Part shown: positions 2,328-42,218 of the stretch, one piece after another
Position numbering within the stretch: position 1 is the stretch's first letter
How the letters are laid out: each line of letters opens with the position of its first letter
Source: Candidatus Omnitrophota bacterium
Lineage (GTDB): Bacteria > Omnitrophota > Gorgyraeia > Zapsychrales > Zapsychraceae
Direction of reading: 5' to 3'
Assembly: GCA_003528115.1 (NCBI GenBank)
Contig: DOGZ01000017.1
Coordinates: 8,795 to 72,794 of the forward strand
DNA: 64,000 bases
Notes under the pieces: model-generated
The model's database searches: none
Told to the model about the DNA's origin: nothing
Seen by the model: the letters and a program-made list of their open reading frames with translations, nothing else
Position numbers and translations under genes: made by a program

Positions 2328-3050
2328 TTAAAACGGTCGAAGGTTTATTTTCTCTTTCAACATTGCCGTAGGATCATTCCTGTTATTCCGTTGGTCCGTT
2401 TGTTTCAAAGCCTTAAGCTCTGAATAACTTAAAATAAGAAGCAGACGAACCGCGGCATAACCATTTCTTAAATGGGTTGTTATATCATAATGGTCGTGTC
2501 CTGAGCCTAAAAGGATTTGTTTATAAATCATGGAGGTATTTATTATTTTGATGTTAACTTCCGGCTGAGTGGTCAGGGCCTTTTGAAAAGACTCAACGGC
2601 TTCAGAATAACGGCCTTCTTTGTAATCAATGAGGCCAAGATTGTAGTGTGACCAAAAGAAATGAGGATTCAGTAAAGCGGCTTTTTTGTAGGCCTCCAAG
2701 GACTTCTGTTTTTCCCCGGTGTGGTAATAACAAAATCCCAACAGGCCATAGGCCTCAGCCAATTGAGGCATGTAGAGAACCACCTTTTCGTAGTATTGAA
2801 TGCAGCCTCGGAGTTTCTTTTTGTCGGGGACTTCCTGGTCATCCATAATTCCTGTGAGATGGACAAAGGAAGGCAGAAGCCGGTTTAATACGGTGATCTT
2901 GGCCGCGTTCAGGCTTTTAGGATGATCGATCGTTGCGTGAAAGAATACCCAGGCGAACAGATACAAGATCATGACACGGTTTCCATAAAACAGGAAACGA
3001 GTTATCAGAAGACTGTTCTTCATGATTTTCTCAGGGAGAATGTTATCCAT
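2328..3050 (-). CDS. TPR-repeat protein with N-terminal membrane anchor
   Basis: 240 aa. TPR-like repeats are visible (AEAYGLLGFCYYHTGEKQKSLEAYKKAALLNP; SHYNLGLIDYKEGRYSEAVESFQKAL) and there is an N-terminal hydrophobic segment. The start overlaps the end of the upstream gene. Confidence 0.55.
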   Translation of the reverse strand: MDNILPEKIMKNSLLITRFLFYGNRVMILYLFAWVFFHATIDHPKSLNAAKITVLNRLLPSFVHLTGIMDDQEVPDKKKLRGCIQYYEKVVLYMPQLAEAYGLLGFCYYHTGEKQKSLEAYKKAALLNPHFFWSHYNLGLIDYKEGRYSEAVESFQKALTTQPEVNIKIINTSMIYKQILLGSGHDHYDITTHLRNGYAAVRLLLILSYSELKALKQTDQRNNRNDPTAMLKEKINLRPF

Positions 3051-5119
3051 AAAAACAAAAGGCTGATCAATAGGAAATAAAATAGAGCTAATAACACGTA
3101 ATTCATAAGATAAGCCCCAGAAGTGCCGAAATGAAAATAGACGACATTTTCTCCCGGCGGAATCCAGAGGCCTTTAAAAGCAATGTTGGCTCGTTCCACA
3201 GGGACAGGTTGCCTGTTAACAAAGGCCTGCCACCGGCTGTCAAAGGAGTCATTATAAACAAGAAATTTACGAGACGGGAAATTGGTTTTTACTTTTATTG
3301 AGTTCATATTGTAGGACAACAAACGGAATTCGGGGGCGTCTTTTTCAATAACCAAGGCTTCCTTAGGAACGTCCCGGGAATCCGCCCCATCTTCCCCGGA
3401 AGAAGAAACAAAGGCCACGTTTCTTTGTTCAGCGAAAGCTTGCTCGACTTCTTTAAAGCTCAAATTCTTATCGGAAATGTTTTCGGTGCGGTCATAAAGG
3501 ATAAATTTATGACTTAGATATTTTCCAAAAATTGTATAATCCAGCCGGCTGTTGGCCAAGTGGTACCACTTTGTCCCGAAATATATTTTTTGTGTGTGGT
3601 CAGGACTGTGGGTATAACTAAAATCCGTGAACGGCCGGTCATACGTGGATGGCCCCGCGTAGGACGGGGAATTGAGGCTGAGATGATAATAGACTTCTGT
3701 CGCGGGAAGGAAAACGAGCCCTAAGAGAAAGATCAGGGTTGAGATTTCTTTACTGATCAATCTTCCATTGAAGATGAGGATAAAGAAAATAAAACTGAAG
3801 CAAATGGTCAAAAAAGAGGTGAGAGACGCCGTCTTGGTGAAGATTGTAAGGAGAAAGCCAATGAAGTGAACGGCCAGGAGAAAAGCCATCGTTAAAATGT
3901 TTTCTTTTTTTGTGGTTGGACGATGAGTTAGGATTGAACGGAACAATTCCGTGACAAAGAGAATCAATAGAGGGAGAAGGATGAGCCAGAGAAAAAAGTG
4001 TGAATTTCTGAAATACTTAAAAAAGAAGACATGCGTGTATAAATAGGAATAAATAGGTAACTGAGGGGTGGTGATGAGAAAGACGAGGAGGCTCCAGATG
4101 AAAAACAGTAGAAGTTTTTTGTTAATTCTGCTCATCGCCCCGAGGCTGAATATCAGATAGGCAAAGAGGGGGATATATAAGACTTTAAAGTGCATGTCCG
4201 GGAGATTGGATAAAAGATAAGAAAAATATACCTCCTCACCGATGCTCCATTCGGTAATTTTATTTATATTGACCTCGAGGGCGTTTTGAGACGAGGAGGC
4301 GTCTGCTCTAAAGGGCAGCGTGAATTCGCCTCTGGATGATTCGTGAAAAAATGTAATGGAAGGCAGGGCGGATAAGAGAAGGGCCGCCAGGCAGAAGCCC
4401 GCGAAGATTTTGTTGTGGTTGAGAAAAGATAGATTCCTTCGGCAGATGGTTAAGAAATCCTGGAAGAAAATAATAATAAAACAAAAGACAAAAGATAAAA
4501 AGATAGTGGCGAAATAAAAGGGAATATACGTGGTCATGAGAAGCATGAAACAGAAAATCAGGCCTAGAAAAGAATGTTTTTGCGGGTTTCTGGAGAAATC
4601 CACCAGAAAAAAGAAAAACCAAATCATGGGGACGAATATGAGGTGGAGATAGGAGTCGAAGAGATTTGTCCCCAGAGAAGAGAACAGGAGAAGGAGGTAA
4701 GCCAAAAAAGCGGACTTTGTATCCCGAAAAATTAAGTGCGCCAGTTTATAGAAACCAAATATGCCCAGAAAGTAGTATGCGCCTAGAAAGGCAAGATAGG
4801 CCAGCGTGTAGTTGAGGCCCATCCCTTGAAGAATAAGAATAAAACCATAAAAAGGATTATAAGCGCCGATTCGGCGTAAAAAGAAATCGTTAGGCGCGCC
4901 TGATTCCCATGTCGGGTTCCATAAAGGAAAGACCCCGCGGCTCACATTATCTAAAAAGAATTTGATTTGTTCGTAGTAGGATACCGCGTCGTGAACGAGG
5001 GCTAATTTGGCGGAAAGAAAATCGCGGAACAAAAATACCCATAAAAGAAAAGAAAAAATAATGATCCAGTAAGGATTTTTAATATGAGGCAGGAAATGGG
5101 GATGTTTGGGCGGCATCAT
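3020..5119 (-). CDS. YfhO-like polytopic membrane protein (GT-C fold glycosyltransferase family)
   Basis: 699 aa with many TM helices. The N-terminal loop (DAVSYYEQIKFF...GVFPLWNP) is typical of the YfhO family, and there is a large C-terminal extracytoplasmic domain. Confidence 0.5.
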   Translation of the reverse strand: MMPPKHPHFLPHIKNPYWIIIFSFLLWVFLFRDFLSAKLALVHDAVSYYEQIKFFLDNVSRGVFPLWNPTWESGAPNDFFLRRIGAYNPFYGFILILQGMGLNYTLAYLAFLGAYYFLGIFGFYKLAHLIFRDTKSAFLAYLLLLFSSLGTNLFDSYLHLIFVPMIWFFFFLVDFSRNPQKHSFLGLIFCFMLLMTTYIPFYFATIFLSFVFCFIIIFFQDFLTICRRNLSFLNHNKIFAGFCLAALLLSALPSITFFHESSRGEFTLPFRADASSSQNALEVNINKITEWSIGEEVYFSYLLSNLPDMHFKVLYIPLFAYLIFSLGAMSRINKKLLLFFIWSLLVFLITTPQLPIYSYLYTHVFFFKYFRNSHFFLWLILLPLLILFVTELFRSILTHRPTTKKENILTMAFLLAVHFIGFLLTIFTKTASLTSFLTICFSFIFFILIFNGRLISKEISTLIFLLGLVFLPATEVYYHLSLNSPSYAGPSTYDRPFTDFSYTHSPDHTQKIYFGTKWYHLANSRLDYTIFGKYLSHKFILYDRTENISDKNLSFKEVEQAFAEQRNVAFVSSSGEDGADSRDVPKEALVIEKDAPEFRLLSYNMNSIKVKTNFPSRKFLVYNDSFDSRWQAFVNRQPVPVERANIAFKGLWIPPGENVVYFHFGTSGAYLMNYVLLALFYFLLISLLFLWITFSLRKS

Positions 5120-31280: not shown

Positions 31281-31481
31281 GATCTCTCCTTAACTAAATC
31301 ATTCAAAAGAATAGGGGGGGAAATAATAAGTGCATGTGAAATTGATGGAGGCGATTATATATATGAAACGGGTGTTTGACAAGGAATTTCCAGCCCTTCC
31401 GCCCCCCCTTGTTTTATTCCCCCTCAAATTAGAAAATAATTTCTCCTTAAATATATCGACGATTGCTACCTATGGAGGAGG

Positions 31482-31521
31482 CCTTGTTCGTCGAAGAAAA
31501 ACTTTTCTAATTCGAACAAGG
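31482..31521. repeat. Perfect 9-bp inverted repeat CCTTGTTCG-n22-CGAACAAGG in the ppiD/hisG divergent intergenic region
   Basis: Read directly. No downstream U-tract. Confidence 0.5.
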
Positions 31522-31546
31522 GCAGAGAAGGGAAAAGAAATTAGTC

Positions 31547-31575
31547 TTTACAAGTGAAATGGGCCTCGTTATAAT
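31547..31575 (+). promoter_or_regulatory. Near-consensus sigma70-type promoter upstream of hisG (TTTACA-N17-TATAAT)
   Basis: Hexamers and spacer read directly, about 60 nt upstream of hisG. Confidence 0.4.
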
Positions 31576-31636: not shown

Positions 31637-32521
31637 ATGGATGGAATGAAAAAGCTAAAATTAGGTTTACCTAAGGGGAGTTTGCAGGAAGCCACCATTA
31701 AGGTCTTTGAACGGGCCGGTTTTCAGATTTATGTCTCCGGCCGGTCCTATTTCCCAACGATAGATGACGATGAGATCGATCCGGTCCTTTTACGGGCACA
31801 AGAGATGTCCCGTTACGTGGAAGAGGAGGCCTTGGACTGTGGTATTACCGGCGCTGATTGGATCCAGGAAAATAATTCTGATGTGATTTTCTTGGCGGAT
31901 TTGATTTATGCCAAACAGAGCGCGGTAAAGGTTCGTTGGGTTTTAGCTGTTCCTGAAAAGGCCTCGATTAATTCCGTTAAGGATTTAAATGGGAAAAGGA
32001 TTGCCACCGAGCTCGTGAATGTCACAAAGAGTTATTTGAGAAAGAACAAGGTCAAGGCGGATGTTGAATTTAGCTGGGGAGCGACCGAGGCGAAGGTGGC
32101 GGATGGCCTGGTAGATGCGGTGGTTGAGTTAACGGAAACAGGAAGCAGTTTACGGGCTCATAAGTTGCGGATCATTGATACTATTTGTGAATCAACCACG
32201 CAATTTATCGCGAATAAAAAAGCGGCTAAAGATCCATGGAAAAAAAGAAAAATGGATCAGGTTGTGATGCTTTTGAAAGGGGCAATCGCGGCCAGGAATA
32301 TGGTGGGTCTAAAAATGAATGTGGAGAAGAAAAATTTTCAAGAAATTTTAAATCTTCTTACATCTCTTAAAGATCCGACGGTCTCGAGTTTAAGCCGGAA
32401 GGATTGGTTTGCTGTTGAGACCGTTATTGATGAAGGCACTGTGCGGACGTTAATTCCAAAACTTAAAGATGCTGGGGCTCAAGGGATTATAGAATACCCG
32501 TTGAATAAACTCATTCATTAA
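31637..32521 (+). CDS. hisG: ATP phosphoribosyltransferase, long form
   Basis: [11 protein letters not shown]-terminus and a C-terminal regulatory domain. Confidence 0.85.
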
Positions 32522-32553
32522 TTTTGGATTATCCTTGAAATAGGAAAAATTAT

Positions 32554-32655
32554 ATGCCAAGCGGAAAAAAAAGAAAAGCACGTAAAATCAGGACGCACAA
32601 ACGCAAAAAACTAAGAAAAGCTTTGCGACATCTTAAGAAGCGTAAGACCGCGTAA
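32554..32655 (+). CDS. Candidate ribosomal protein bS22-like ultra-basic 33-aa peptide (AURKAIP1/COX24-domain-like)
   Basis: The peptide is MPSGKKRKARKIRTHKRKKLRKALRHLKKRKTA. It has an AGGAAA RBS 5 nt upstream. Its composition and length resemble actinobacterial and Bacteroidetes bS22. The ORF track does not call it. Confidence 0.35.
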   Translation: MPSGKKRKARKIRTHKRKKLRKALRHLKKRKTA

Positions 32656-32837
32656 TTTGCGTTCTTTTATCCTTAAGGATCAATATTGCAAACCCTCAAT
32701 TTCTGAGGCTTGTTCAGGCAGGATCTTGTGATATTCTATGGGAGAGGCTATTCCTCTACGTGGTGCATTTTTGAGGATGTAACCAGCGCTCTTATAGAGA
32801 AACGTGCTCTTCGATAAGATGAACAAAGGGTTAGTTA

Positions 32838-33835
32838 TGCGACAAACAAAAATTCTTAGTGTTTGTGGCGGTTTTAGTGTTTTATTGATACTGCTATTTT
32901 GCGCTAAGACAGAGGCTTTTTTTTATGAAGATAAAATTGCTGTATCTAAAGGTCTGGCCCATTATGCCATAGGGCAGATGCATGATCTCCTTGGGCAGTC
33001 TGATTTGGCGGTATTAGAATACGAAAAAGCTGTTCAGTTCGATGAAACCAGTCATCTCCTGCACCTAAGACTGGGGACAGATTATGCGCGCTTAAATATG
33101 CTCTCTGAGGCTGAGGCTGAGTTGCAGTTAGTCAATAAATATAACCCCGAAGATTTACAATCCCATTATCTCCTTGCCCTCATTTACTCTACTCAAAAAG
33201 AATACGATAAAGCGGCTGGCGAATATGAGTTTATCCTAAAATCGTTTGCGGTCGCCGAACCTCAAAATATTGAGGTTTATGGATATTTAGGGCAGCTTTA
33301 TTACTCTCAAAGAAAATTTGATCAAGCCATTGAGCAGTTTGAAAGGATTTTGGCTATTGAACCTGAAAATGCCGATGTGATGTATTTGTTAAGTTCCCTC
33401 TATCTTGAAGTCAACAAGAGGGACCTCGCTATTAAACTTTTGAAAAAATCCATTGCGATAGACCCGGAACATGACGGCAGCCTTAACACGCTGGGGTATT
33501 TGTATACTGAAGATAATCATCAGTTGGAAGAAGCTGAAAAATTGATAACCCGTGCGTTGAAACTTAGTCCTGATAATGGAGCTTATCTCGATAGTCTGGG
33601 ATGGGTGTATTATAAAAAAGAAAAATATGAAGAGGCGTTAGAAATTTTAAAAAAAGCAGATGCCGTCTTAAAAGACTCTGTCATTTATGATCATATGGGC
33701 GATGTTTACTATAAGTTGAATCGTTTTGAGGATGCCGTAAAGCATTGGGAGCTTTCGCTGGAGCTCCTGCCCGAACAACAAGAAGTTGCTAAAAAAATTA
33801 ATGATGTTAAAAATTTTCAGGCTAATCTCAAATAG
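32838..33835 (+). CDS. Secreted TPR-repeat protein
   Basis: Signal peptide followed by multiple TPR repeats. Confidence 0.6.
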
Positions 33836-33847
33836 TAACTTTACCTC

Positions 33848-34705
33848 ATGAGCGGCCTTCTCCTTCAGTCTCCTGCCAAAGTCAATCTTTTCCTTAAGAT
33901 TCTTAATAAAAGAGCGGATGGGTACCACAATATCGTTACATTATTTGAACGCGTAGATCTCTGCGATGAGATATTTTTGGATTCTAACAAAATTGGCGAT
34001 ATTCGGATTTTCTGTAACCATCCCCATGTTCCTACCGGGCCTAAAAACCTTGCATACAAAGCCGTTAGAATGCTCCAAAAAGATTTCCGGATAACAGAAG
34101 GTGTTGATATCAGAATCAATAAACGAATCCCCGTGGCCGCGGGGTTAGCCGGGGGGTCAAGCAACGCGGCCACAACTCTATTGGGGTTAAACCGTTTATG
34201 GGGGCTACGTTTGGGATCGAAGAAGTTGTTGTTTTATGCCCGTCAAATTGGAAGCGATGTCCCATTCTTTTTATATAATTGTTCATGGGCTTTAGGTCAG
34301 GGAAGAGGGGATGTCATTAAAAAGATAAATATAAGGACAAAGTTATGGCATATTTTGGTTATTCCTCGAATTAAAATGTATTCTTGGAAAGTCTACGGCG
34401 GCTTGAAATTGAAGTTGACAAAAAAAGATGATGATGTTAATATCCTAATCCATCATTTAAGGAAAAATAATTTAGAAGAGGCTAGACGGCAATTAGTTAA
34501 TGATTTAGAGACTTCCATCATAGAGCTATGCCCGAGACTTGAGAAAATACGGGAAAAATTGAAGTTATTGAACGCCCAGAATGCTATGTTTTCTGGGAGT
34601 GGGCCGTGTGTGTTTGGGATGACTGATTCTGAAAAGGATGGCAAGACCATGGCCGTGATATTGAGGAAACGTTTTAATCAAGTATTTGTCGTTAGAACTC
34701 TTTGA
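33848..34705 (+). CDS. ispE: 4-diphosphocytidyl-2-C-methyl-D-erythritol kinase
   Basis: GHMP kinase motif PVAAGLAGGSSNAA and the N-terminal KVNLFLKI. Confidence 0.85.
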   Translation: MSGLLLQSPAKVNLFLKILNKRADGYHNIVTLFERVDLCDEIFLDSNKIGDIRIFCNHPHVPTGPKNLAYKAVRMLQKDFRITEGVDIRINKRIPVAAGLAGGSSNAATTLLGLNRLWGLRLGSKKLLFYARQIGSDVPFFLYNCSWALGQGRGDVIKKINIRTKLWHILVIPRIKMYSWKVYGGLKLKLTKKDDDVNILIHHLRKNNLEEARRQLVNDLETSIIELCPRLEKIREKLKLLNAQNAMFSGSGPCVFGMTDSEKDGKTMAVILRKRFNQVFVVRTL

Positions 34706-34901
34706 AATTCGTTTTAGAGGATGTGTGGCGGCAAGGGAAATGTTTTTTCCCTTATCGGAATAGGTATTGCGAAAGACTTAAACTCGTTACGAACTTCTTA
34801 AAAGAAATGTTTGGGGCAAGAGATTGACACTTCTAAAGGGATGATAGGCTGAGGAAGTGGCAGTTGAAAAGCGTACCGAAACAAAGGAAGGGGTTGAGGG
34901 G

Positions 34902-35306
34902 ATGGAGATTACAGAAATTCGCATATTTCCTAAAGAAGGACAAGACAAAAAGTTAAAAGCGTATACAACAGTGACATTTGATAATTCCTTTGTTGTTAGA
35001 AACATCAAAGTTATTCAAGGTTCGAGTGGGTTATTTATTGCTATGCCATCTCGAAAAATGAAGACTTCGTGTCCCAAGTGTCATTTTAAAAATGAGATCG
35101 GCAGCAGATTCTGTAATCACTGTGGAACTGCTATCCCATCAGATAATACCCAGACACATGAGGGGGATGATAAGGCAGAACATCGTGACATCGCGCACCC
35201 CATAACTCAGCAATTTCGCGAATATCTGCAAACAAATATCTTAGAGGCCTACAATAAAGAAACCGCTAAAACCATTTCTTCGAGTGGTTCTCCAGAACAA
35301 ACTTGA
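34902..35306 (+). CDS. spoVG: SpoVG family nucleic-acid-binding protein with inserted zinc-ribbon
   Basis: The core aligns to SpoVG (MEITEIRIF...FVVRNIKVIQGSSGLFIAMPS...HRDIAHPIT). About 37 aa containing CPKC-x12-CNHC are inserted in the loop. Confidence 0.75.
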   Translation: MEITEIRIFPKEGQDKKLKAYTTVTFDNSFVVRNIKVIQGSSGLFIAMPSRKMKTSCPKCHFKNEIGSRFCNHCGTAIPSDNTQTHEGDDKAEHRDIAHPITQQFREYLQTNILEAYNKETAKTISSSGSPEQT

Positions 35307-35427
35307 TCTAAAATTTTGTCGAAATTAGATAAAGAAGTCCGGATGTGGATTTCCAGAAAAGAGGCTATAGATAAAATGAATCAGGTGCCTCTTAAGATTT
35401 TTTTGTTGCTGAAATAGGATGTTCGAT

Positions 35428-35499
35428 TGCCCGGTGGTGTAATTGGTAACACACGAGAATTTGGATCTCGTTTTCCTGGTTCGAGCCCAGGCTGGGCAG
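35428..35499 (+). tRNA. tRNA-Gln (anticodon UUG)
   Basis: Manual fold: acceptor stem TGCCCGG/CTGGGCA with U1-A72 and G73; D-arm GTGT-AATTGGTA-ACAC; anticodon arm CGAGA-ATTTGGA-TCTCG; T-arm CCTGG-TTCGAGC-CCAGG. No CCA is encoded. Confidence 0.8.
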
Positions 35500-35606
35500 A
35501 TAAATTTGCCGGGTAAAACCCTCAGAATCTTTGTGAGAAGAACATAGATATATAAGGCTATCAATTTTGGTTCTGCTGTTAGGGATGTGACGAAGGGGTG
35601 CGTTTT

Positions 35607-36866
35607 ATGAAAGATTTACGAACGATTATTCTGGCGGCGGGTAAGGGGACAAGAATGAAATCAGCAGTCCCCAAAGTGTTGCAAACAGTTTGCGGACGTC
35701 CGATCATTCAGTATGTTCTGGATATTGCCAAAAATGTCGGTTCTTTGAAAACTTATATTGTTGTCGGTCATAAAAGTGATGACGTAAAAATTTATTTACC
35801 TAAAGAAGTGGTCACTGTTGAACAGAAGCGGTTGTTAGGGACGGCGGATGCTGTTAAGTGTGTGGAAGGGCATCTTAAAAATGACAAGGGGGATGTCCTG
35901 ATATTATGCGGAGATACGCCGCTACTTAATAAAAGAGTCATTGCTGAGCTTATTAGAAAACACCGGCGAACAAAAGCGATAGTCAGTTTCTTGACGGCAA
36001 TTGTCGATCAACCTAAAGGGTATGGCCGCATCTTGCGGGATCAGGCGGGGAGAGCGGTGGCCATTCTGGAAGAAAAAGATGCCAGTGTTCAGCAGCGAGC
36101 AATTAATGAAATTAATGTTGGTGTGTACTGCTTTAATAGCGCAGCGCTGTTTGGGGCGTTAAGAAGCATCAAGATTAATCCAAAGAAACAAGAGTTTTAT
36201 TTAACGGATATTATTGAACTGTTTTCTAAAAGAGGACGGCGGATTGAAACTCTCCGGACAGAAAATCCTGCCGAAGGATTAGGCGTTAATACCAGAGAAG
36301 ATTTGGCCGTTGCCGAGAGAATCTTGCGGCGAAAGATTTTAAAAAAGTTGATGCTTTCCGGGGTGACCATTATTGATCCCCAAACGACGTATATTGATGC
36401 CGATGTGAAAATCGGCAGAGATACGATTATTCGTCCGTGTACTTTTATCGAAAACGATATTCGCATTGGAAAGAACTGTAAGATTGGCCCTTTTGCGCGA
36501 CTAAGGCCAGGGGTGAGGATTGGAGACGAAGTAGAAATTGGGAATTTCACAGAAGTATCGCGCACGAAAATAGGCAAGCAGACTCTTATGAAACATTTTA
36601 GCTATTTAGGCGATTCTTTGGTCGGTTCCAAAGTCAACATAGGGGCAGGGACAATAACCGCTAATTTCGATGGGCAGAAAAAAAATCAAACGATCATCAA
36701 AGATCAAGCTTTTATCGGTTCTGATTCTATTTTAATAGCCCCTGTTAAGGTTGGCAAGAAGGCGATTGTTGGCGCTGGAAGTGTTGTGACAAAAGGAAAG
36801 ATTATTCCAGATGGCAGTATCGTCGTCGGGGTACCTGCTAGGGTCATTGCCAGGAGAAAATTTTAA
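35607..36866 (+). CDS. glmU: Bifunctional UDP-GlcNAc pyrophosphorylase / GlcN-1-P N-acetyltransferase
   Basis: LAAGKGTRM N-terminus and C-terminal LbH repeats. The ATG has an AAGGGG RBS. Confidence 0.85.
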   Translation: MKDLRTIILAAGKGTRMKSAVPKVLQTVCGRPIIQYVLDIAKNVGSLKTYIVVGHKSDDVKIYLPKEVVTVEQKRLLGTADAVKCVEGHLKNDKGDVLILCGDTPLLNKRVIAELIRKHRRTKAIVSFLTAIVDQPKGYGRILRDQAGRAVAILEEKDASVQQRAINEINVGVYCFNSAALFGALRSIKINPKKQEFYLTDIIELFSKRGRRIETLRTENPAEGLGVNTREDLAVAERILRRKILKKLMLSGVTIIDPQTTYIDADVKIGRDTIIRPCTFIENDIRIGKNCKIGPFARLRPGVRIGDEVEIGNFTEVSRTKIGKQTLMKHFSYLGDSLVGSKVNIGAGTITANFDGQKKNQTIIKDQAFIGSDSILIAPVKVGKKAIVGAGSVVTKGKIIPDGSIVVGVPARVIARRKF

Positions 36867-37816
36867 TGAATGGGATATCCGTCTTTACCGGGAACGCTAA
36901 CCCTCAATTAGCGGAAGATATTTGTAAACAATTGGACGTCTCTTTGACTAAAGTGCTTGTTTCTCGTTTTAGCGAGGGGGAGATCCGGGTTGAGATCAAA
37001 GAAAATATAAGAGGCAAAGATGTTTTTATCATACAGCCGACGTGTCCTCCCACAAACGAAAATTTGATGGAGCTGTTGATTTTGATTGACGCGGCCCGGC
37101 GAGCGTCGGCGCAGCGTATCACCGCGGTTCTCCCGTATTATGGGTATGCCCGTCAGGATCGTAAAGATCAGCCGCGTGTTCCGATTACTGCCAAATTGGT
37201 GGCTAATTTGATTGTCTCGGCAGGGGCGCAACGCGTCTTGACTATGGATTTGCATGCGAATCAAATTCAGGGCTTTTTTGACATACCGGTTGATCATTTA
37301 TACGCTATTAATACGTTGTGTGATTATTTGAGCAGCAAAAAGTTGAAGAATTTGGTGGTGGTCTCGCCTGACGTGGGTGGGATTAAAATGTCGAGAGCGT
37401 ACGCCAAGAGATTAGGCGCGGGATTGGCCATCGTGGATAAACGCCGGTGGAGTCCTGAGAAAACGGAAGTCATGCATATCCTAGGAACAGTAAAGGGAAA
37501 GAATGCGGTGCTGGTCGATGACATTGTGGCCACGGGAGGGTCGTTGATCGAGGCCATTGATGTCCTTACTCAAAAAGGTGTTAAGGATGTCTACGCGACG
37601 GTGAGCCATGGCATTCTTTCGGGAGAGGCGGTTTCCCGCATTAAAAATTGCAAGGCTCTAAAAGAATTAGTAATTACGGATAGCATTCCTTTAACCAAAG
37701 AAAAGCGGGTCTCTAACATCCGCGTTGTTAGTGTCGCACCTCTTTTGGCTGAGGCTATCCGTCGAATACATGGGGAACAGTCTATTAGTTGTTTATTTGA
37801 TGAAACGAGGGCTTAA
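36866..37816 (+). CDS. prs: Ribose-phosphate pyrophosphokinase
   Basis: PRPP synthetase motifs are present. The start overlaps the glmU stop. Confidence 0.9.
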   Translation: MNGISVFTGNANPQLAEDICKQLDVSLTKVLVSRFSEGEIRVEIKENIRGKDVFIIQPTCPPTNENLMELLILIDAARRASAQRITAVLPYYGYARQDRKDQPRVPITAKLVANLIVSAGAQRVLTMDLHANQIQGFFDIPVDHLYAINTLCDYLSSKKLKNLVVVSPDVGGIKMSRAYAKRLGAGLAIVDKRRWSPEKTEVMHILGTVKGKNAVLVDDIVATGGSLIEAIDVLTQKGVKDVYATVSHGILSGEAVSRIKNCKALKELVITDSIPLTKEKRVSNIRVVSVAPLLAEAIRRIHGEQSISCLFDETRA

Positions 37817-37818
37817 AA

Positions 37819-38517
37819 ATGGAAGAAATTAAACTGGATGTGCAATTAAGAAATCAGTTAGGAAGTCGGAAAATCAAGAGTATTCGTCGGGAGGGTTTTA
37901 TCCCTGCTATTGTTTATGGCGCGGATGGCGGACCAACACCCATTAAAGTGGAGCAACGCAATTATAAGAAAATCATGCGGCTTCATAAAGGGCAATTTGT
38001 TGTTTTTCATTTGAATGTGTTGGAGGGGAGCAGGAAATTAAAAGATTATTCCGTTATTCTCAAAGAGGAACAACTGGATCCGGTTTCTGAGGAATTGGTT
38101 CATATCGATTTTCACCAGATTTCTTTAACGGAGAAAATTGAGGTTAAAGTCCCCGTTGCTACAAAGGGGGATCCTATCGGCGTGAAACAAGGCGGCGGAA
38201 CCCTCGAGCACGGGTTGTGGGAATTGGATGTGGTTTGTTTACCGACAAATATCCCTGAAAAGATCGAAATCGATGTCAGTCATTTAAATATAGGACAGGT
38301 TATCCATGTCAAAGATGTCATTTTGCCGGAAGGGGTAAGCACGAGGCATGATCCGGAATCTCTGGTTGTCTCGGTCGTTTATTCCATGAAAGAAAAAGAG
38401 ACGGAAGAGGCGGTGACGGAGGCTCCGAACGAACCTGAGGTTATAAAGGCAAAGAAAGAAACCAAAGAAACCAAAGAAGTCAAAGAAGCGGTAGAGGCCA
38501 AACCAAAAGAAAAATAG
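37819..38517 (+). CDS. ctc: 50S ribosomal protein bL25 / general stress protein Ctc, with K/E-rich tail
   Basis: L25 N-domain followed by a Ctc-type C-domain and a lysine/glutamate-rich tail. Confidence 0.85.
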   Translation: MEEIKLDVQLRNQLGSRKIKSIRREGFIPAIVYGADGGPTPIKVEQRNYKKIMRLHKGQFVVFHLNVLEGSRKLKDYSVILKEEQLDPVSEELVHIDFHQISLTEKIEVKVPVATKGDPIGVKQGGGTLEHGLWELDVVCLPTNIPEKIEIDVSHLNIGQVIHVKDVILPEGVSTRHDPESLVVSVVYSMKEKETEEAVTEAPNEPEVIKAKKETKETKEVKEAVEAKPKEK

Positions 38518-38560
38518 AAGAATTCTGAAAGATGATTACCTCTAACGCTTATTTATTTTA

Positions 38561-39154
38561 ATGTCCTCAACGTATCTGATCGTAGGTCTGGGCAATCCCG
38601 GAAAAGAGTACGAATATACGCGGCATAATCTTGGTTTTTTGGTTTTACGCCGCTTGGCGGAAAAACTTAACCGTCGATTTAAAATCAGCTCTTTAACAAA
38701 TGGTTTGATGGCAGAAGGACAAATTCAAGAAAAAAACGTCTGTCTTTTGATGCCGATGACCTTTATGAATAATTCAGGGGTTGCCGTCAGCCAGGTCACG
38801 GCCAAGAAAAATGTATCCCCTAAAAACCTGCTTGTGGTGTGTGATGATTTGAATTTAAATTTTGGTCAAATCCGTTTAAGGTCTAAAGGAAGTGATGGCG
38901 GACATAACGGTCTGAATTCAGTTATTCATCACTTGGGGACAGAGGAGTTCTTGCGGTTGCGCATGGGGGTAGGACATCCGGGGCACAAGCTAGACGTTGT
39001 TGACTACGTCCTTGCTGAGTTTAAGCCAAAGGAAAAAGAATACCTAGAGAATTTTATCGGTGAGGCGACAGGGTGTTGTCTCACATGGGTAAGTGAAGGA
39101 ATAAAAAAAGGAATGGAGCAGTACAACAGAAGGAAAGAAAATGGAAAAGAGTGA
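38561..39154 (+). CDS. pth: Peptidyl-tRNA hydrolase
   Basis: LIVGLGNPG and HNG motifs. Confidence 0.85.
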   Translation: MSSTYLIVGLGNPGKEYEYTRHNLGFLVLRRLAEKLNRRFKISSLTNGLMAEGQIQEKNVCLLMPMTFMNNSGVAVSQVTAKKNVSPKNLLVVCDDLNLNFGQIRLRSKGSDGGHNGLNSVIHHLGTEEFLRLRMGVGHPGHKLDVVDYVLAEFKPKEKEYLENFIGEATGCCLTWVSEGIKKGMEQYNRRKENGKE

Positions 39155-39476
39155 ATTAGTCAGAAAGTATGAATTGGTTGTTATTGTCGACGCAAAATTG
39201 ACACAAGAAGAAAAAGAAACCATTTACAAAGAAGCCACAGATGCCGTAACTAAAGGAGGTGCTAAAATTATTAATAATCATGTGTGGCTCGAAAAGCATA
39301 AATTTACTTTCCGTATCAAGAAGTGTCATGAAGGAACTTATTATCTGATTGCTTTTGAAGGGGAGGGTTCTGAGATTGAAAAGATCAAATCCGTGTTAAG
39401 GGTAAACGAACGCGTTCTTCGTTTTGCCATCACGCAGGGTAAGTCCCCTTATGTCGTCGAAGCGGGACGTATCTAA
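39141..39476 (+). CDS. rpsF: 30S ribosomal protein bS6
   Basis: YELVVIV N-terminus, the right size, and the rpsF-ssb-rpsR context. Confidence 0.85.
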   Translation: MEKSELVRKYELVVIVDAKLTQEEKETIYKEATDAVTKGGAKIINNHVWLEKHKFTFRIKKCHEGTYYLIAFEGEGSEIEKIKSVLRVNERVLRFAITQGKSPYVVEAGRI

Positions 39477-39565
39477 ACAGAACAATATCAACCTTACCGA
39501 CTTTAATAGTCTTTAAGGGCGGTGGTCAATTTTAAAATGAGCGTTTGAGTTTGAAGGAGGTTAGA

Positions 39566-40006
39566 ATGGCGAATTTAAATAAAGTTTTTTTAATTGGTAA
39601 TTTAACCCGAGATCCAGAATTGCGTTACACTCCTGGAGGAACGGCAGTCGCCAATTTAGGCATAGCCGTTAACAGACGGTTTAAAGACAGTTCTGGCGAG
39701 TTAAAAGATGAAGTTTGTTTTCTTACGGTTACGGTCTGGGATAAACAGGCTGAGGCCTGCTGCCAATATTTACAGAAGGGTCGTCCTGTATTTGTGGAAG
39801 GTGTTTTACAGTCGAGATTTTGGGAGACCAGTGATGGCCAGAAGAGAAGCGCCATAGACGTGCGCGCGGAGAGAGTCCAGTTTTTAGGGAGTTACGGAGC
39901 CAGTAAAGAGAAAGATGCCGCAAAACCCGAAGAGGTGGAAATGGCTGACGTGATTAGCCAACAATCAGAAGCTATTAAACCAGATGATATTGCCTGGGAT
40001 GAATAA
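39566..40006 (+). CDS. ssb: Single-stranded DNA-binding protein
   Basis: OB-fold N-terminus (NKVFLIGNLTRDPELRYT) and an acidic C-terminus. RBS GAAGGAGG. Confidence 0.85.
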   Translation: MANLNKVFLIGNLTRDPELRYTPGGTAVANLGIAVNRRFKDSSGELKDEVCFLTVTVWDKQAEACCQYLQKGRPVFVEGVLQSRFWETSDGQKRSAIDVRAERVQFLGSYGASKEKDAAKPEEVEMADVISQQSEAIKPDDIAWDE

Positions 40007-40030
40007 TTTAATTTTAAGGAGGAAAGACCG

Positions 40031-40279
40031 TTGATAAAGAATGATAATAAAAGAAGAATAATAAACCGCCAAAGAAACACGGTTAAATTTCAATTGTCCA
40101 AAGACGCTCAAATTGATTATAAAAATCTTGGGTTATTGCAAAAATATGTCAATGAGCGTGGTAAGATTGTCCCTCGACGCATATCGGGTGTGACCGCCAG
40201 GGAGCAAAGAGCGTTGGTTTTGGCCATTAAAAGAGCCAGGTTTTTAGCCCTTTTGACAACAGGCGGGGTTAAAAAATAA
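40031..40279 (+). CDS. rpsR: 30S ribosomal protein bS18
   Basis: [11 protein letters not shown]...[12 protein letters not shown]. The start is TTG with an AAGGAGG RBS. Confidence 0.85.
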
Positions 40280-40461
40280 CTGTTTATGGTGTGTGGATTT
40301 TTTCAAATCCTGGTGTGCTCGCGTCATTTCATGCCGGGGAAACGAAAAAAAATTAACACACGCTGAAAGACATAAAATTTAAAACAAAATCAGTATAATC
40401 ATTGACCCACGCGGATTAATTTATTTATGCGGAAGTCAATGGTTGATGCCGGGAGATCCTT

Positions 40462-40905
40462 ATGGAAGTAATATTGTCGCAAGATGTTCAGAAACTAGGT
40501 AAAGTCGGGGAGGTCGTCAAGGTTAAAGATGGTTATGCCCGAAATCTCCTTTTCCCCCAAAAGTTAGCCTATTTAGCCACCCCTGTAAATCTTAAAAGAA
40601 TTGAACAACTCGAGAAAAAGAGAAAGATACAGTTTGAGAAGGATAAACAAGAAGCTTTGACCTTGGCGGAAAAGTTAAATAAACTTTCCTGCACGGTGAG
40701 TGTTGAGGTGAATGATTTAGAACGCCTTTACGGATCCATCAATGAAAATGATATTGTTAAAGCCATGGAAATGGAAGGTTTTAGCATAGATAAGAAAACC
40801 ATTATTATAGAGAAACCCATTGAAGAATTAGGTATTTTTGAGGTCGGTATCAAACTTCATCCTGAAGTGATAGCCAAAATACGTCTATGGGTTACGAAGA
40901 AATAA
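40462..40905 (+). CDS. rplI: 50S ribosomal protein bL9
   Basis: MEVIL...VKVKDGYARN N-terminus. Confidence 0.85.
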   Translation: MEVILSQDVQKLGKVGEVVKVKDGYARNLLFPQKLAYLATPVNLKRIEQLEKKRKIQFEKDKQEALTLAEKLNKLSCTVSVEVNDLERLYGSINENDIVKAMEMEGFSIDKKTIIIEKPIEELGIFEVGIKLHPEVIAKIRLWVTKK

Positions 40906-42218
40906 GAATCCCTCCACAGAATATCGAAGCTGAGAAATCTGTTTTGGGGTCCATGCTCATCGACGAAGAGGCCATCGGTATGGCAGTCGAAATTTTGGAT
41001 GAGACATGGTTTTATGACGATGCTCACCGGAAAATTTATAAGGCCGTCATTGAGCTCTATAATAGTCATAAAAATGTCGATCTCATAACACTCTGCGACA
41101 AATTAAAAAATGATGGTCTCCTGGAACAAGTGGGAGGCGTTACCTACCTTTCAGTCCTTATCGATTTTGTTCCTACCTCCGCAAACGTTGAACATTATGC
41201 CCAGATCGTCAAAGAAAAAGGTGTTTTAAGAAGACTGATTCATAATGCCACCCAGATCGTTTCCGAAAGCTATGAAGCCAAAGGCAATGTCGAAGATGTG
41301 GTTGATCGTGCGGAGAAACTCATTTTTGAGATAGCGGATCTAAAACAAAAACAACAGTCAGTTCACATCAAAGATTTAGTGAAAGAAAGCATTGAAACCA
41401 TTGATCGGCTTTATAAAAGAAAACAGCATATTACGGGGATCGCAACGGGTTTTGAGAAATTTGACGCAATGACGTCGGGGCTTCAGAAGTCGGATTTGGT
41501 CATTGTCGCCGGACGTCCGTCAATGGGGAAAAGTGCTTTAGCCGTTTCTATGGGAGAGAAGATCGGCATTGAATTGAAAGAGGGGGTGGCGTTCTTCAGC
41601 CTTGAGATGTCCAAAGAACAGCTTGTTCAGAGAATGCTGTGTTCGCAGGCGCGTGTGGACGCGCACAAGTTAAGGTCCGGTTTTTTGTCTCCGTCGGATT
41701 GGCCGAAGTTAACGGCGGCAGCCGGGAGGCTTTCTGAATCAAAAATTTTTATAGATGACACACCGGCGATTTCCGTCTTGGAATTACGTGCTAAGGCCAG
41801 ACGTCTAAAGGCGAATTACGATATTCAACTGATTGTTTTAGATTATCTTCAATTAATGAGGAGCACGACGAAATCCGACAACCGTCAGCAGGAAATTTCC
41901 GAAATATCCCGCTCTCTTAAAGCCTTGGCGCGGGAATTAAGCGTGCCGGTCATCGCGTTAAGCCAGTTGTCACGGGCGGTTGAATCCAGACAGGATCATC
42001 GTCCTCAACTTTCTGATTTGCGAGAATCCGGCGCTATCGAACAGGACGCGGATCTGGTCGTCCTTCTTATGCGAGAAGAATATTATAATCCTACCGAGCA
42101 GAACAAGGGCGTTGCCGACGTGATTATCGCCAAACAAAGAAACGGCCCCGTGGGAACGATTAAACTTGCCTTCATCAAAGAATATATGCGGTTTGAAAAT
42201 CTTGCATATGTTGATTGA
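40887..42218 (+). CDS. dnaB: Replicative DNA helicase
   Basis: PQNIEAEKSVLG N-terminus, Walker A GRPSMGKSA, RecA-like core. There is no intein-sized insertion. Confidence 0.85.
   Translation: MGYEEIRIPPQNIEAEKSVLGSMLIDEEAIGMAVEILDETWFYDDAHRKIYKAVIELYNSHKNVDLITLCDKLKNDGLLEQVGGVTYLSVLIDFVPTSANVEHYAQIVKEKGVLRRLIHNATQIVSESYEAKGNVEDVVDRAEKLIFEIADLKQKQQSVHIKDLVKESIETIDRLYKRKQHITGIATGFEKFDAMTSGLQKSDLVIVAGRPSMGKSALAVSMGEKIGIELKEGVAFFSLEMSKEQLVQRMLCSQARVDAHKLRSGFLSPSDWPKLTAAAGRLSESKIFIDDTPAISVLELRAKARRLKANYDIQLIVLDYLQLMRSTTKSDNRQQEISEISRSLKALARELSVPVIALSQLSRAVESRQDHRPQLSDLRESGAIEQDADLVVLLMREEYYNPTEQNKGVADVIIAKQRNGPVGTIKLAFIKEYMRFENLAYVD

Follow-up and report, generated by a model that had tools for sequence, protein, structure and literature searches.

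A homologue of ribosomal protein bS22 encoded between hisG and a TPR-repeat gene in an uncultivated Omnitrophota bacterium

Does a 33-codon ORF that lies between hisG and a TPR-repeat gene, and that gene callers have passed over, encode a ribosomal protein? The question is raised by a 64-kb stretch of DNA (the window, meaning the whole stretch that was analysed) from an uncultivated groundwater bacterium of the phylum Omnitrophota, in which the ORF at 32554..32655 on the + strand (ATG start, TAA stop) encodes the peptide MPSGKKRKARKIRTHKRKKLRKALRHLKKRKTA. A sequence-only reading had proposed it as an unannotated, bS22-like ribosomal protein. The ATG at 32554 is the sole possible start, because an in-frame TGA (32536-32538) is found 15 nt upstream. 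Among all small ORFs in the six frames of the window, this one is the most basic (55% K/R); the 20 Lys/Arg first counted in it should be corrected to 18, since 20 is reached only when the two His are added. The Shine-Dalgarno-like motif AGGAAA (32542..32547, + strand), a putative ribosome-binding site, is present as described, and its distance to the ATG is 6 nt instead of the 5 nt given.

A conserved coding gene under purifying selection

The description of the peptide as unannotated is borne out by public data. Five full copies of the locus in public assemblies have hisG and the TPR gene with nothing called in the gap; a sixth contig, which is short, does have a call for the peptide, but it ends after 27 residues at the contig edge. 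The exact peptide has no entry in the gene-position index or in a collection of 15 billion proteins, and its close relatives in public protein sets are either nameless or labelled "hypothetical protein". GenBank proteins with exactly the sequence of the window's HisG come from the bins "Omnitrophica WOR_2 bacterium GWA2_45_18" and "GWC2_45_7", whose copies of the locus are on contigs MHFX01000008.1 and MHGD01000095.1.

To describe the conservation of the ORF, relatives were collected from one scan each of genome and metagenome collections, so that all copy numbers given here are lower bounds. At least eight further copies of the Omnitrophota type were found (L007, L008, L019 and L047-L051), each of 33 codons, and in all of them the frame, the length and the positions of start and stop are kept. 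The start codon in L019 is GTG. The peptides share 76-91% identity with that of the window, compared with 60-81% for HisG and 37-61% for the TPR protein in the same relatives. Among the nine coding sequences, the Nei-Gojobori method gives pS from 0.14 to about 1.0, which is near saturation, and pN from 0 to 0.26. Two pairs differ by synonymous changes only (16 between L019 and L051 and 9 between L008 and L049, with no replacement in either pair), and the numbers of variable columns at codon positions 1, 2 and 3 are 15, 8 and 29 of 32 codons. ω is about 0.03-0.06 in the pairs where it can be estimated, and is about 0.06 between the window and L047, the closest relative among the matches listed. 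A lost reading frame or a Ka/Ks near 1 in relatives had been named as the observation that would count against the peptide; the frame is kept in at least eight relatives and ω is far from 1. The ORF at 32554..32655 codes for protein, is conserved and is subject to strong purifying selection.

Homology to bS22 and the two sequence classes

When the single peptide was searched with phmmer against all PDB chain sequences, only three matches were found at E ≤ 10 and all are bS22: those of Flavobacterium johnsoniae (7jil_5, E 1e-4), Borrelia burgdorferi (8fmw_V, E 9e-4) and Porphyromonas gingivalis (9i5v_10, E 6e-3), each aligned ungapped from residue 1. Entry 9I5V was assigned to its organism via the P. 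gingivalis ribosome paper, in which an identical bS22 of 30 residues is modelled. These single-sequence E-values are modest and carry a high bias term. A profile (A4) was also built from 23 Omnitrophota-type sequences only, with the PDB sequences excluded to avoid circularity, and it retrieved the same three bS22 chains and no other from the PDB, with E-values of 8.8e-9, 4.9e-7 and 3.5e-4, the top match being Borrelia 8FMW chain V (E 8.8e-9). In register, the peptide is identical to F. johnsoniae bS22 at 20/30 positions, to B. burgdorferi bS22 at 18/28 and to P. gingivalis bS22 at 19/30, whereas the best of 200,000 composition-preserving shuffles fell short of each of these values (maxima 18, 16 and 17 in the same order). 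Because no shuffle equals it and because M1, P2, G4, T14, H15 and H26 are among the identities, the similarity is not compositional. At the level of sequence, the peptide is homologous over its entire length to bS22 chains that have been built into cryo-EM maps, and the proposal of a bS22-like protein is upheld by full-length homology to the chains in 7JIL, 8FMW and 9I5V.

An alignment of 26 sequences from Omnitrophota, Bacteroidota, Fibrobacterota, Fidelibacterota, Borrelia and unclassified bins, including the three PDB chains, has 13 invariant columns (M1, P2, G4, R7, K8, T14, H15, K16, R17, K18, K19, R25 and H26). The window peptide has all motifs of this class, namely M-P-x-G-[KR]-K-R-K at residues 1-8, T-H-K-R-K-K at 14-19 and R-H at 25-26. 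It also fits the class in size and composition, with 33 aa including 18 K/R and 2 His in a class of ultra-basic proteins of 28-33 aa. An exhaustive HMMER search of 1.8 billion representatives with the 33-residue query gave nothing at E ≤ 0.001, which is expected and uninformative because so short a query cannot become significant against so many sequences. Taken as a whole, we consider it very likely that the ORF is the Omnitrophota gene for ribosomal protein bS22 of the Bacteroidota/Borrelia sequence class.

Two sequence classes of bS22 are known, linked in the literature by structure and position and not by sequence. The window peptide had been said to resemble bS22 of both Actinobacteria and Bacteroidetes, with the mitochondrial mS38 tail as a further relative. 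By its motifs it belongs to the Bacteroidota/Spirochaete class (MPxGKKRK…THKRKK…RH), so this part of the comparison stands, but no similarity that would connect its sequence with actinobacterial bS22 or mS38 can be detected, and BLASTP and hhalign comparisons of the window peptide with M. smegmatis bS22 showed no relationship. The profile searches that had been suggested as a check also returned no positive identification. Pfam PF08213 COX24_C (DUF1713) gives 13.2 bits (E 0.087) for the window peptide, below its gathering threshold of 23 bits, although the match is in register (residues 5-30 to profile positions 5-30 of 33), and NCBIfam NF047430 ribo_bS22, an equivalog model with a cut-off of 34 bits, does not match it even at E ≤ 10. 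M. smegmatis bS22 scores 62.6 bits with NF047430 and 46.2 bits with COX24_C. The cryo-EM-verified bS22 proteins of F. johnsoniae and B. burgdorferi, however, match neither model at E ≤ 10, and P. gingivalis bS22 scores 11.8 bits with COX24_C, comparable to the 13.2 bits of the window peptide. Since the same models miss verified Flavobacterium and Borrelia proteins, their failure here is not evidence against the bS22 assignment.

Could the peptide nevertheless be a strict member of the actinobacterial/mitochondrial AURKAIP1/COX24 (DUF1713) family? Its length is equal to that of M. smegmatis bS22 (33 aa), and the weak in-register COX24_C match is shared by 11 of the 26 family members, the best of these sub-threshold scores (17.2 bits) belonging to an FCB-group genome bin. 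Yet all of these scores are below the 23-bit threshold, ribo_bS22 finds no match, the direct comparisons with the M. smegmatis protein are empty, and M. smegmatis bS22 used as a query reaches mS38 weakly without reaching the Flavobacterium or Borrelia chains. Strict membership is therefore unlikely. The idea that Omnitrophota sequences bridge the two bS22 classes through COX24_C was likewise rejected, as the weak matches are scattered across clades.

It is worth noting that NF047430 and PF08213 recognise only actinobacterial bS22, and the whole Bacteroidota/Spirochaete class is therefore left unnamed in automated annotation. This constitutes an annotation gap, in which bS22 of the verified type stays uncalled or is deposited as "hypothetical protein" in public data. 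An HMM from our alignment A3 would close the gap and permit a proper phyletic survey.

Predicted structure, gene order and other explanations

AlphaFold2, run on the single sequence, gives a helix over residues 4-32 with a mean pLDDT of 94, and the window peptide is thus predicted to be one long α-helix, in line with the helical form of bS22. The model of the free peptide does not show the bend that bS22 has on the ribosome. Foldseek found 0 matches to the model in the PDB, a single helix being uninformative for this method. Sequences of the Omnitrophota type carry L/M, L/M and L/V/I at positions 20, 24 and 27, whereas the verified proteins carry R/K, N and K there; with their i, i+4, i+7 spacing, these residues form a hydrophobic stripe along the helix. 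The Omnitrophota-type C-terminus, in which KKR is followed by ATR, KT[AR] or [DAN]W[AGN], is also 3 residues longer. These clade-specific changes fall in the half of the protein that contacts the large subunit in P. gingivalis. Because positions 20, 24 and 27 differ from those of the verified proteins, identical packing in the rRNA pocket is not guaranteed. More speculatively, the amphipathic C-terminal half of Omnitrophota bS22 may build a different intersubunit bridge or bind a protein partner. The window itself, over its 64 kb, has no 16S rRNA gene.

A placement on the ribosome can be proposed from the bS22 structures of homologues (PMC10618245, PMC7797042, PMC12123416). The peptide would probably be translated from a hisG-bS22(-TPR-ispE) transcript via its own Shine-Dalgarno motif. 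By analogy with those structures, a bent basic helix would then insert into the 16S rRNA pocket of h2, h27, h44 and h45 beside the decoding centre, and its C-terminal end would touch H68/H70 of 23S rRNA, where it could form an extra intersubunit bridge and stabilise h44.

An alternative is that the peptide is conserved, basic and of bS22 ancestry and yet is not a stable component of the ribosome in Omnitrophota; it could then bind nucleic acids as a free peptide, or the ORF could be one whose translation is coupled to TPR/ispE. In favour of this, coupling would agree with the tight and conserved position next to hisG and the TPR gene, the verified proteins have neither the hydrophobic face at 20/24/27 nor the longer C-terminus, and bS22 is dispensable in M. 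smegmatis. A coupling ORF, however, needs only to be translated and has no need to retain its sequence, whereas it is the amino-acid sequence that selection preserves here, each of the residues that never vary between phyla included, and the ribosomal location of the homologues has been demonstrated in two phyla, Bacteroidota and Spirochaetota. Because selection keeps the very residues that are invariant across phyla with a proven ribosomal location, this alternative is disfavoured and we regard it as quite improbable.

Still less can be said for the idea that the ORF arose by chance in an A-rich spacer and that the purine run in front of it is a coincidence. Reading frames of about 30 codons are plentiful on both strands in all frames, and callers skipped this one on five contig copies. 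A chance ORF, however, would hardly keep its frame, length, start and stop in at least eight diverged relatives in which synonymous sites are saturated and replacements are few while the flanking spacers diverged beyond recognition, nor would it show homology to bS22 at an identity that no shuffle equals. The probability of this explanation is negligible.

The gene for the putative ribosomal protein has conserved surroundings. As had been stated, it is placed between hisG (31637..32521, + strand; Pfam HisG and HisG_C), which is co-directional and immediately upstream, and a TPR-repeat gene (32804..33835, + strand; Pfam TPR families) with a GTG start and an alternative ATG at 32837, and both identities were confirmed with Pfam. 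The gap from the hisG stop (32521) to the ORF is 32 nt, in which no terminator-like site was found, and the distance from the ORF to the TPR gene is 148 nt (GTG 32804) or 181 nt (ATG 32837). The order hisG-then-peptide is kept wherever upstream sequence exists (L007 and L047-L051), the TPR gene is 3′ of the peptide in all of the at least eight relatives, and the order ppiD-like (− strand), hisG, peptide, TPR, ispE, glmU is conserved across relatives. An SD-like purine motif occurs at a similar distance from the start in 8 of the 9 Omnitrophota-type loci (AGGA, AAGGAG, AAGGAAGG, AAGGGGG or TAGGAG), while the spacer sequence around these motifs has diverged among the nine loci and the flanks are beyond alignment. 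In L047, L049 and L050, an SD-like motif and an ATG are located within about 25 nt of the peptide stop, and this ATG appears to be the start of the TPR homologue. A consensus scan found a promoter-like site, TTTACA-17-TATAAT (11/12), upstream of hisG at 31547..31575 on the + strand; as the number of such sites in the region is not above that in shuffles, it is a weak candidate for the promoter of a hisG-bS22 transcript. Together, the gap lacking a terminator, the promoter-like site of hisG and the SD motif with ATG in L047, L049 and L050 suggest that the bS22 gene is co-transcribed with its neighbours, hisG being the probable partner, and initiates independently at its own SD.

Directly 5′ of hisG, an ORF of 70-75 aa at 31330-31557 (+ strand) has been called in all public copies; it has no Pfam match, and its 3′ end overlaps the promoter-like site at 31547-31575. 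After the TPR gene, a co-directional array (33848-42218, + strand) comprises ispE, spoVG, tRNA-Gln (35427-35500), glmU, prs, bL25/Ctc, pth, bS6, ssb, bS18, bL9 and dnaB, so that other translation genes are situated about 5-7 kb downstream of the bS22 gene. In the SpoVG homologue of this array (34857-35306, + strand), a zinc-ribbon (CPKC…CNHC, residues 72-92) interrupts the SpoVG domain: the Pfam SpoVG profile, 82 positions long, extends over residues 16-134, and a Zn_Ribbon_1 match lies within this span.

Folding of the downstream spacers in the window and in relatives revealed no conserved terminator or attenuator. In the window, the first 61 nt after the peptide stop fold with a z of −2.1 and the 151-nt spacer with a z of −1.4; hairpins are found right after the bS22 stop in L007 (3111-3138, z −3.55) and in L048 (2607-2638, z −2.2). 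An Rfam search of the whole window at the gathering threshold, and of 32400-32900 at relaxed stringency, gave no family at this locus, the best score being 15.4 bits against a threshold of 37. Adjacency to hisG and the hairpins directly after the stop in some relatives could point to a histidine-operon leader or attenuator peptide, or to another regulatory peptide or RNA of the his/TPR genes, but the ORF is downstream and not upstream of hisG, its two His codons are non-adjacent with no His run, and the hairpins are not conserved across relatives, which leaves this explanation with next to no probability.

Distribution, significance and comparison with known systems

Genes of the same bS22 class were also seen in other lineages. 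Homologues of 29-31 aa are encoded in L009, L016, L024, L035 and L046 (at about 3001-3090, and at 2255-2341 in L035), from bins labelled FCB group, Fidelibacterota, Neomarinimicrobiota, Fibrobacterota and 'uncultured bacterium'; an SD-like motif is found upstream in each, and the start in L046 is TTG. A 2.2-kb contig labelled 'uncultured Planctomycetales bacterium' (L008, 97-198) encodes the same peptide as L048 and L049 and shows the order peptide-TPR-ispE as in Omnitrophota loci. Either the taxonomic label of this contig is questionable or the gene reaches another lineage of the PVC group, to which Omnitrophota are usually assigned. In a 'Lachnospiraceae bacterium' bin (L037, 1026-1118), the bS22 is identical to the Flavobacterium protein and has a Flavobacterium-like leader, which probably represents bin contamination rather than a Firmicutes bS22. 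A third variant, MPKGRRRKLQKIRTHKRKKFLRKMRHKKKK, with the leader GAAAGGAG, is present on two taxon-less metagenome contigs (L073, 2317-2409; L074, 2240-2332), and one public gene call (P0032) makes it too long, at 84 aa. No phage copy of bS22 turned up when viral contigs were scanned.

The presence of the MPxGKKRK…THKRKK…RH class in Bacteroidota, Fibrobacterota, Fidelibacterota, Spirochaetota and Omnitrophota raises the possibility, which we put forward only tentatively and hold to be rather doubtful, that it is ancient and widespread, having existed in an early ancestor and been lost in Proteobacteria and others. If this were true, a protein in the h44/h45 pocket would, together with actinobacterial bS22, mS38 and eL41, be near-universal, and would be neither a lineage oddity nor a product of convergence. 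Since the genes in Omnitrophota, Fidelibacterota and Fibrobacterota have SD-like sites, it is also evident that this class of bS22 extends beyond the SD-less Bacteroidia and the spirochaetes.

Experiments have established the presence of bS22 in Actinomycetota, Bacteroidota and Spirochaetota. In the literature searched, there was no paper combining bS22 with Omnitrophota and no phylum-wide survey of bS22; against this literature, the suggestion that the gene would widen the phyletic range of bS22 is correct. The authors of the Borrelia study predicted bS22 in other bacteria, with short genes escaping annotation, and because of this prediction an Omnitrophota bS22 is an expected and unsurprising extension. 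The parts list of an uncultivated phylum gains a ribosomal protein; the identification is correct and of use, and the biology that it concerns is of a known kind. bS22 adjoins the aminoglycoside site on h44 and alters kanamycin susceptibility in M. smegmatis; because of this position, its distribution among lineages has some bearing on comparative ribosome pharmacology.

Among known systems, the mitochondrial mS38 (AURKAIP1/Cox24) tail and eukaryotic eL41 are structural analogues that occupy an equivalent pocket near h44, and the literature leaves both homology and convergence in play for their relation to bS22. Compared with the window peptide, mS38 is much longer and eL41 is shorter and unbent, and neither appeared at E ≤ 10 in PDB searches with the peptide or its profiles. 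M. smegmatis bS22 (MSMEG_0945; 5O5J, 5O61) has the length of 33 aa and the ultra-basic, helical character in common with the window peptide but no detectable sequence similarity to it. According to structural papers, actinobacterial bS22 occupies the same ribosomal pocket; the M. smegmatis protein is non-essential, and its loss raises aminoglycoside sensitivity through h44.

The three verified proteins of the same sequence class align with the window peptide in register. B. burgdorferi bS22 (bb0822; 8FMW chain V) was likewise absent from the genome annotation and starts with GUG, comparable to the GTG of the Omnitrophota relative L019, but has only 28 aa and is without the hydrophobic face and the C-terminal extension of the window peptide. 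In the Borrelia study it was the single ribosomal protein that mass spectrometry missed; the window peptide, too, is destroyed by trypsin. F. johnsoniae bS22 (Fjoh_1533; 7JIL chain 5) begins with MPSGKKRK as the window peptide does, has THKRKK at its core and RH at 25-26 in common with it, and was also annotated as a hypothetical protein until its discovery by cryo-EM. It differs in having 30 aa, whereas the window peptide has 33 and ends in KKRKTA, and in carrying R, N and K in place of L20, L24 and L27. Moreover, the Flavobacteriia copies have A/T-rich leaders without an SD-like motif, unlike the window gene, which fits the SD-less translation of Bacteroidia (PMC7797042). P. gingivalis bS22 (9I5V chain 10), deposited as an AURKAIP1/COX24 domain-containing protein, has the same motifs as the window peptide and differs from it as the F. 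johnsoniae protein does; on the P. gingivalis ribosome it lies between h44 and h45, with its C-terminus contacting H70.
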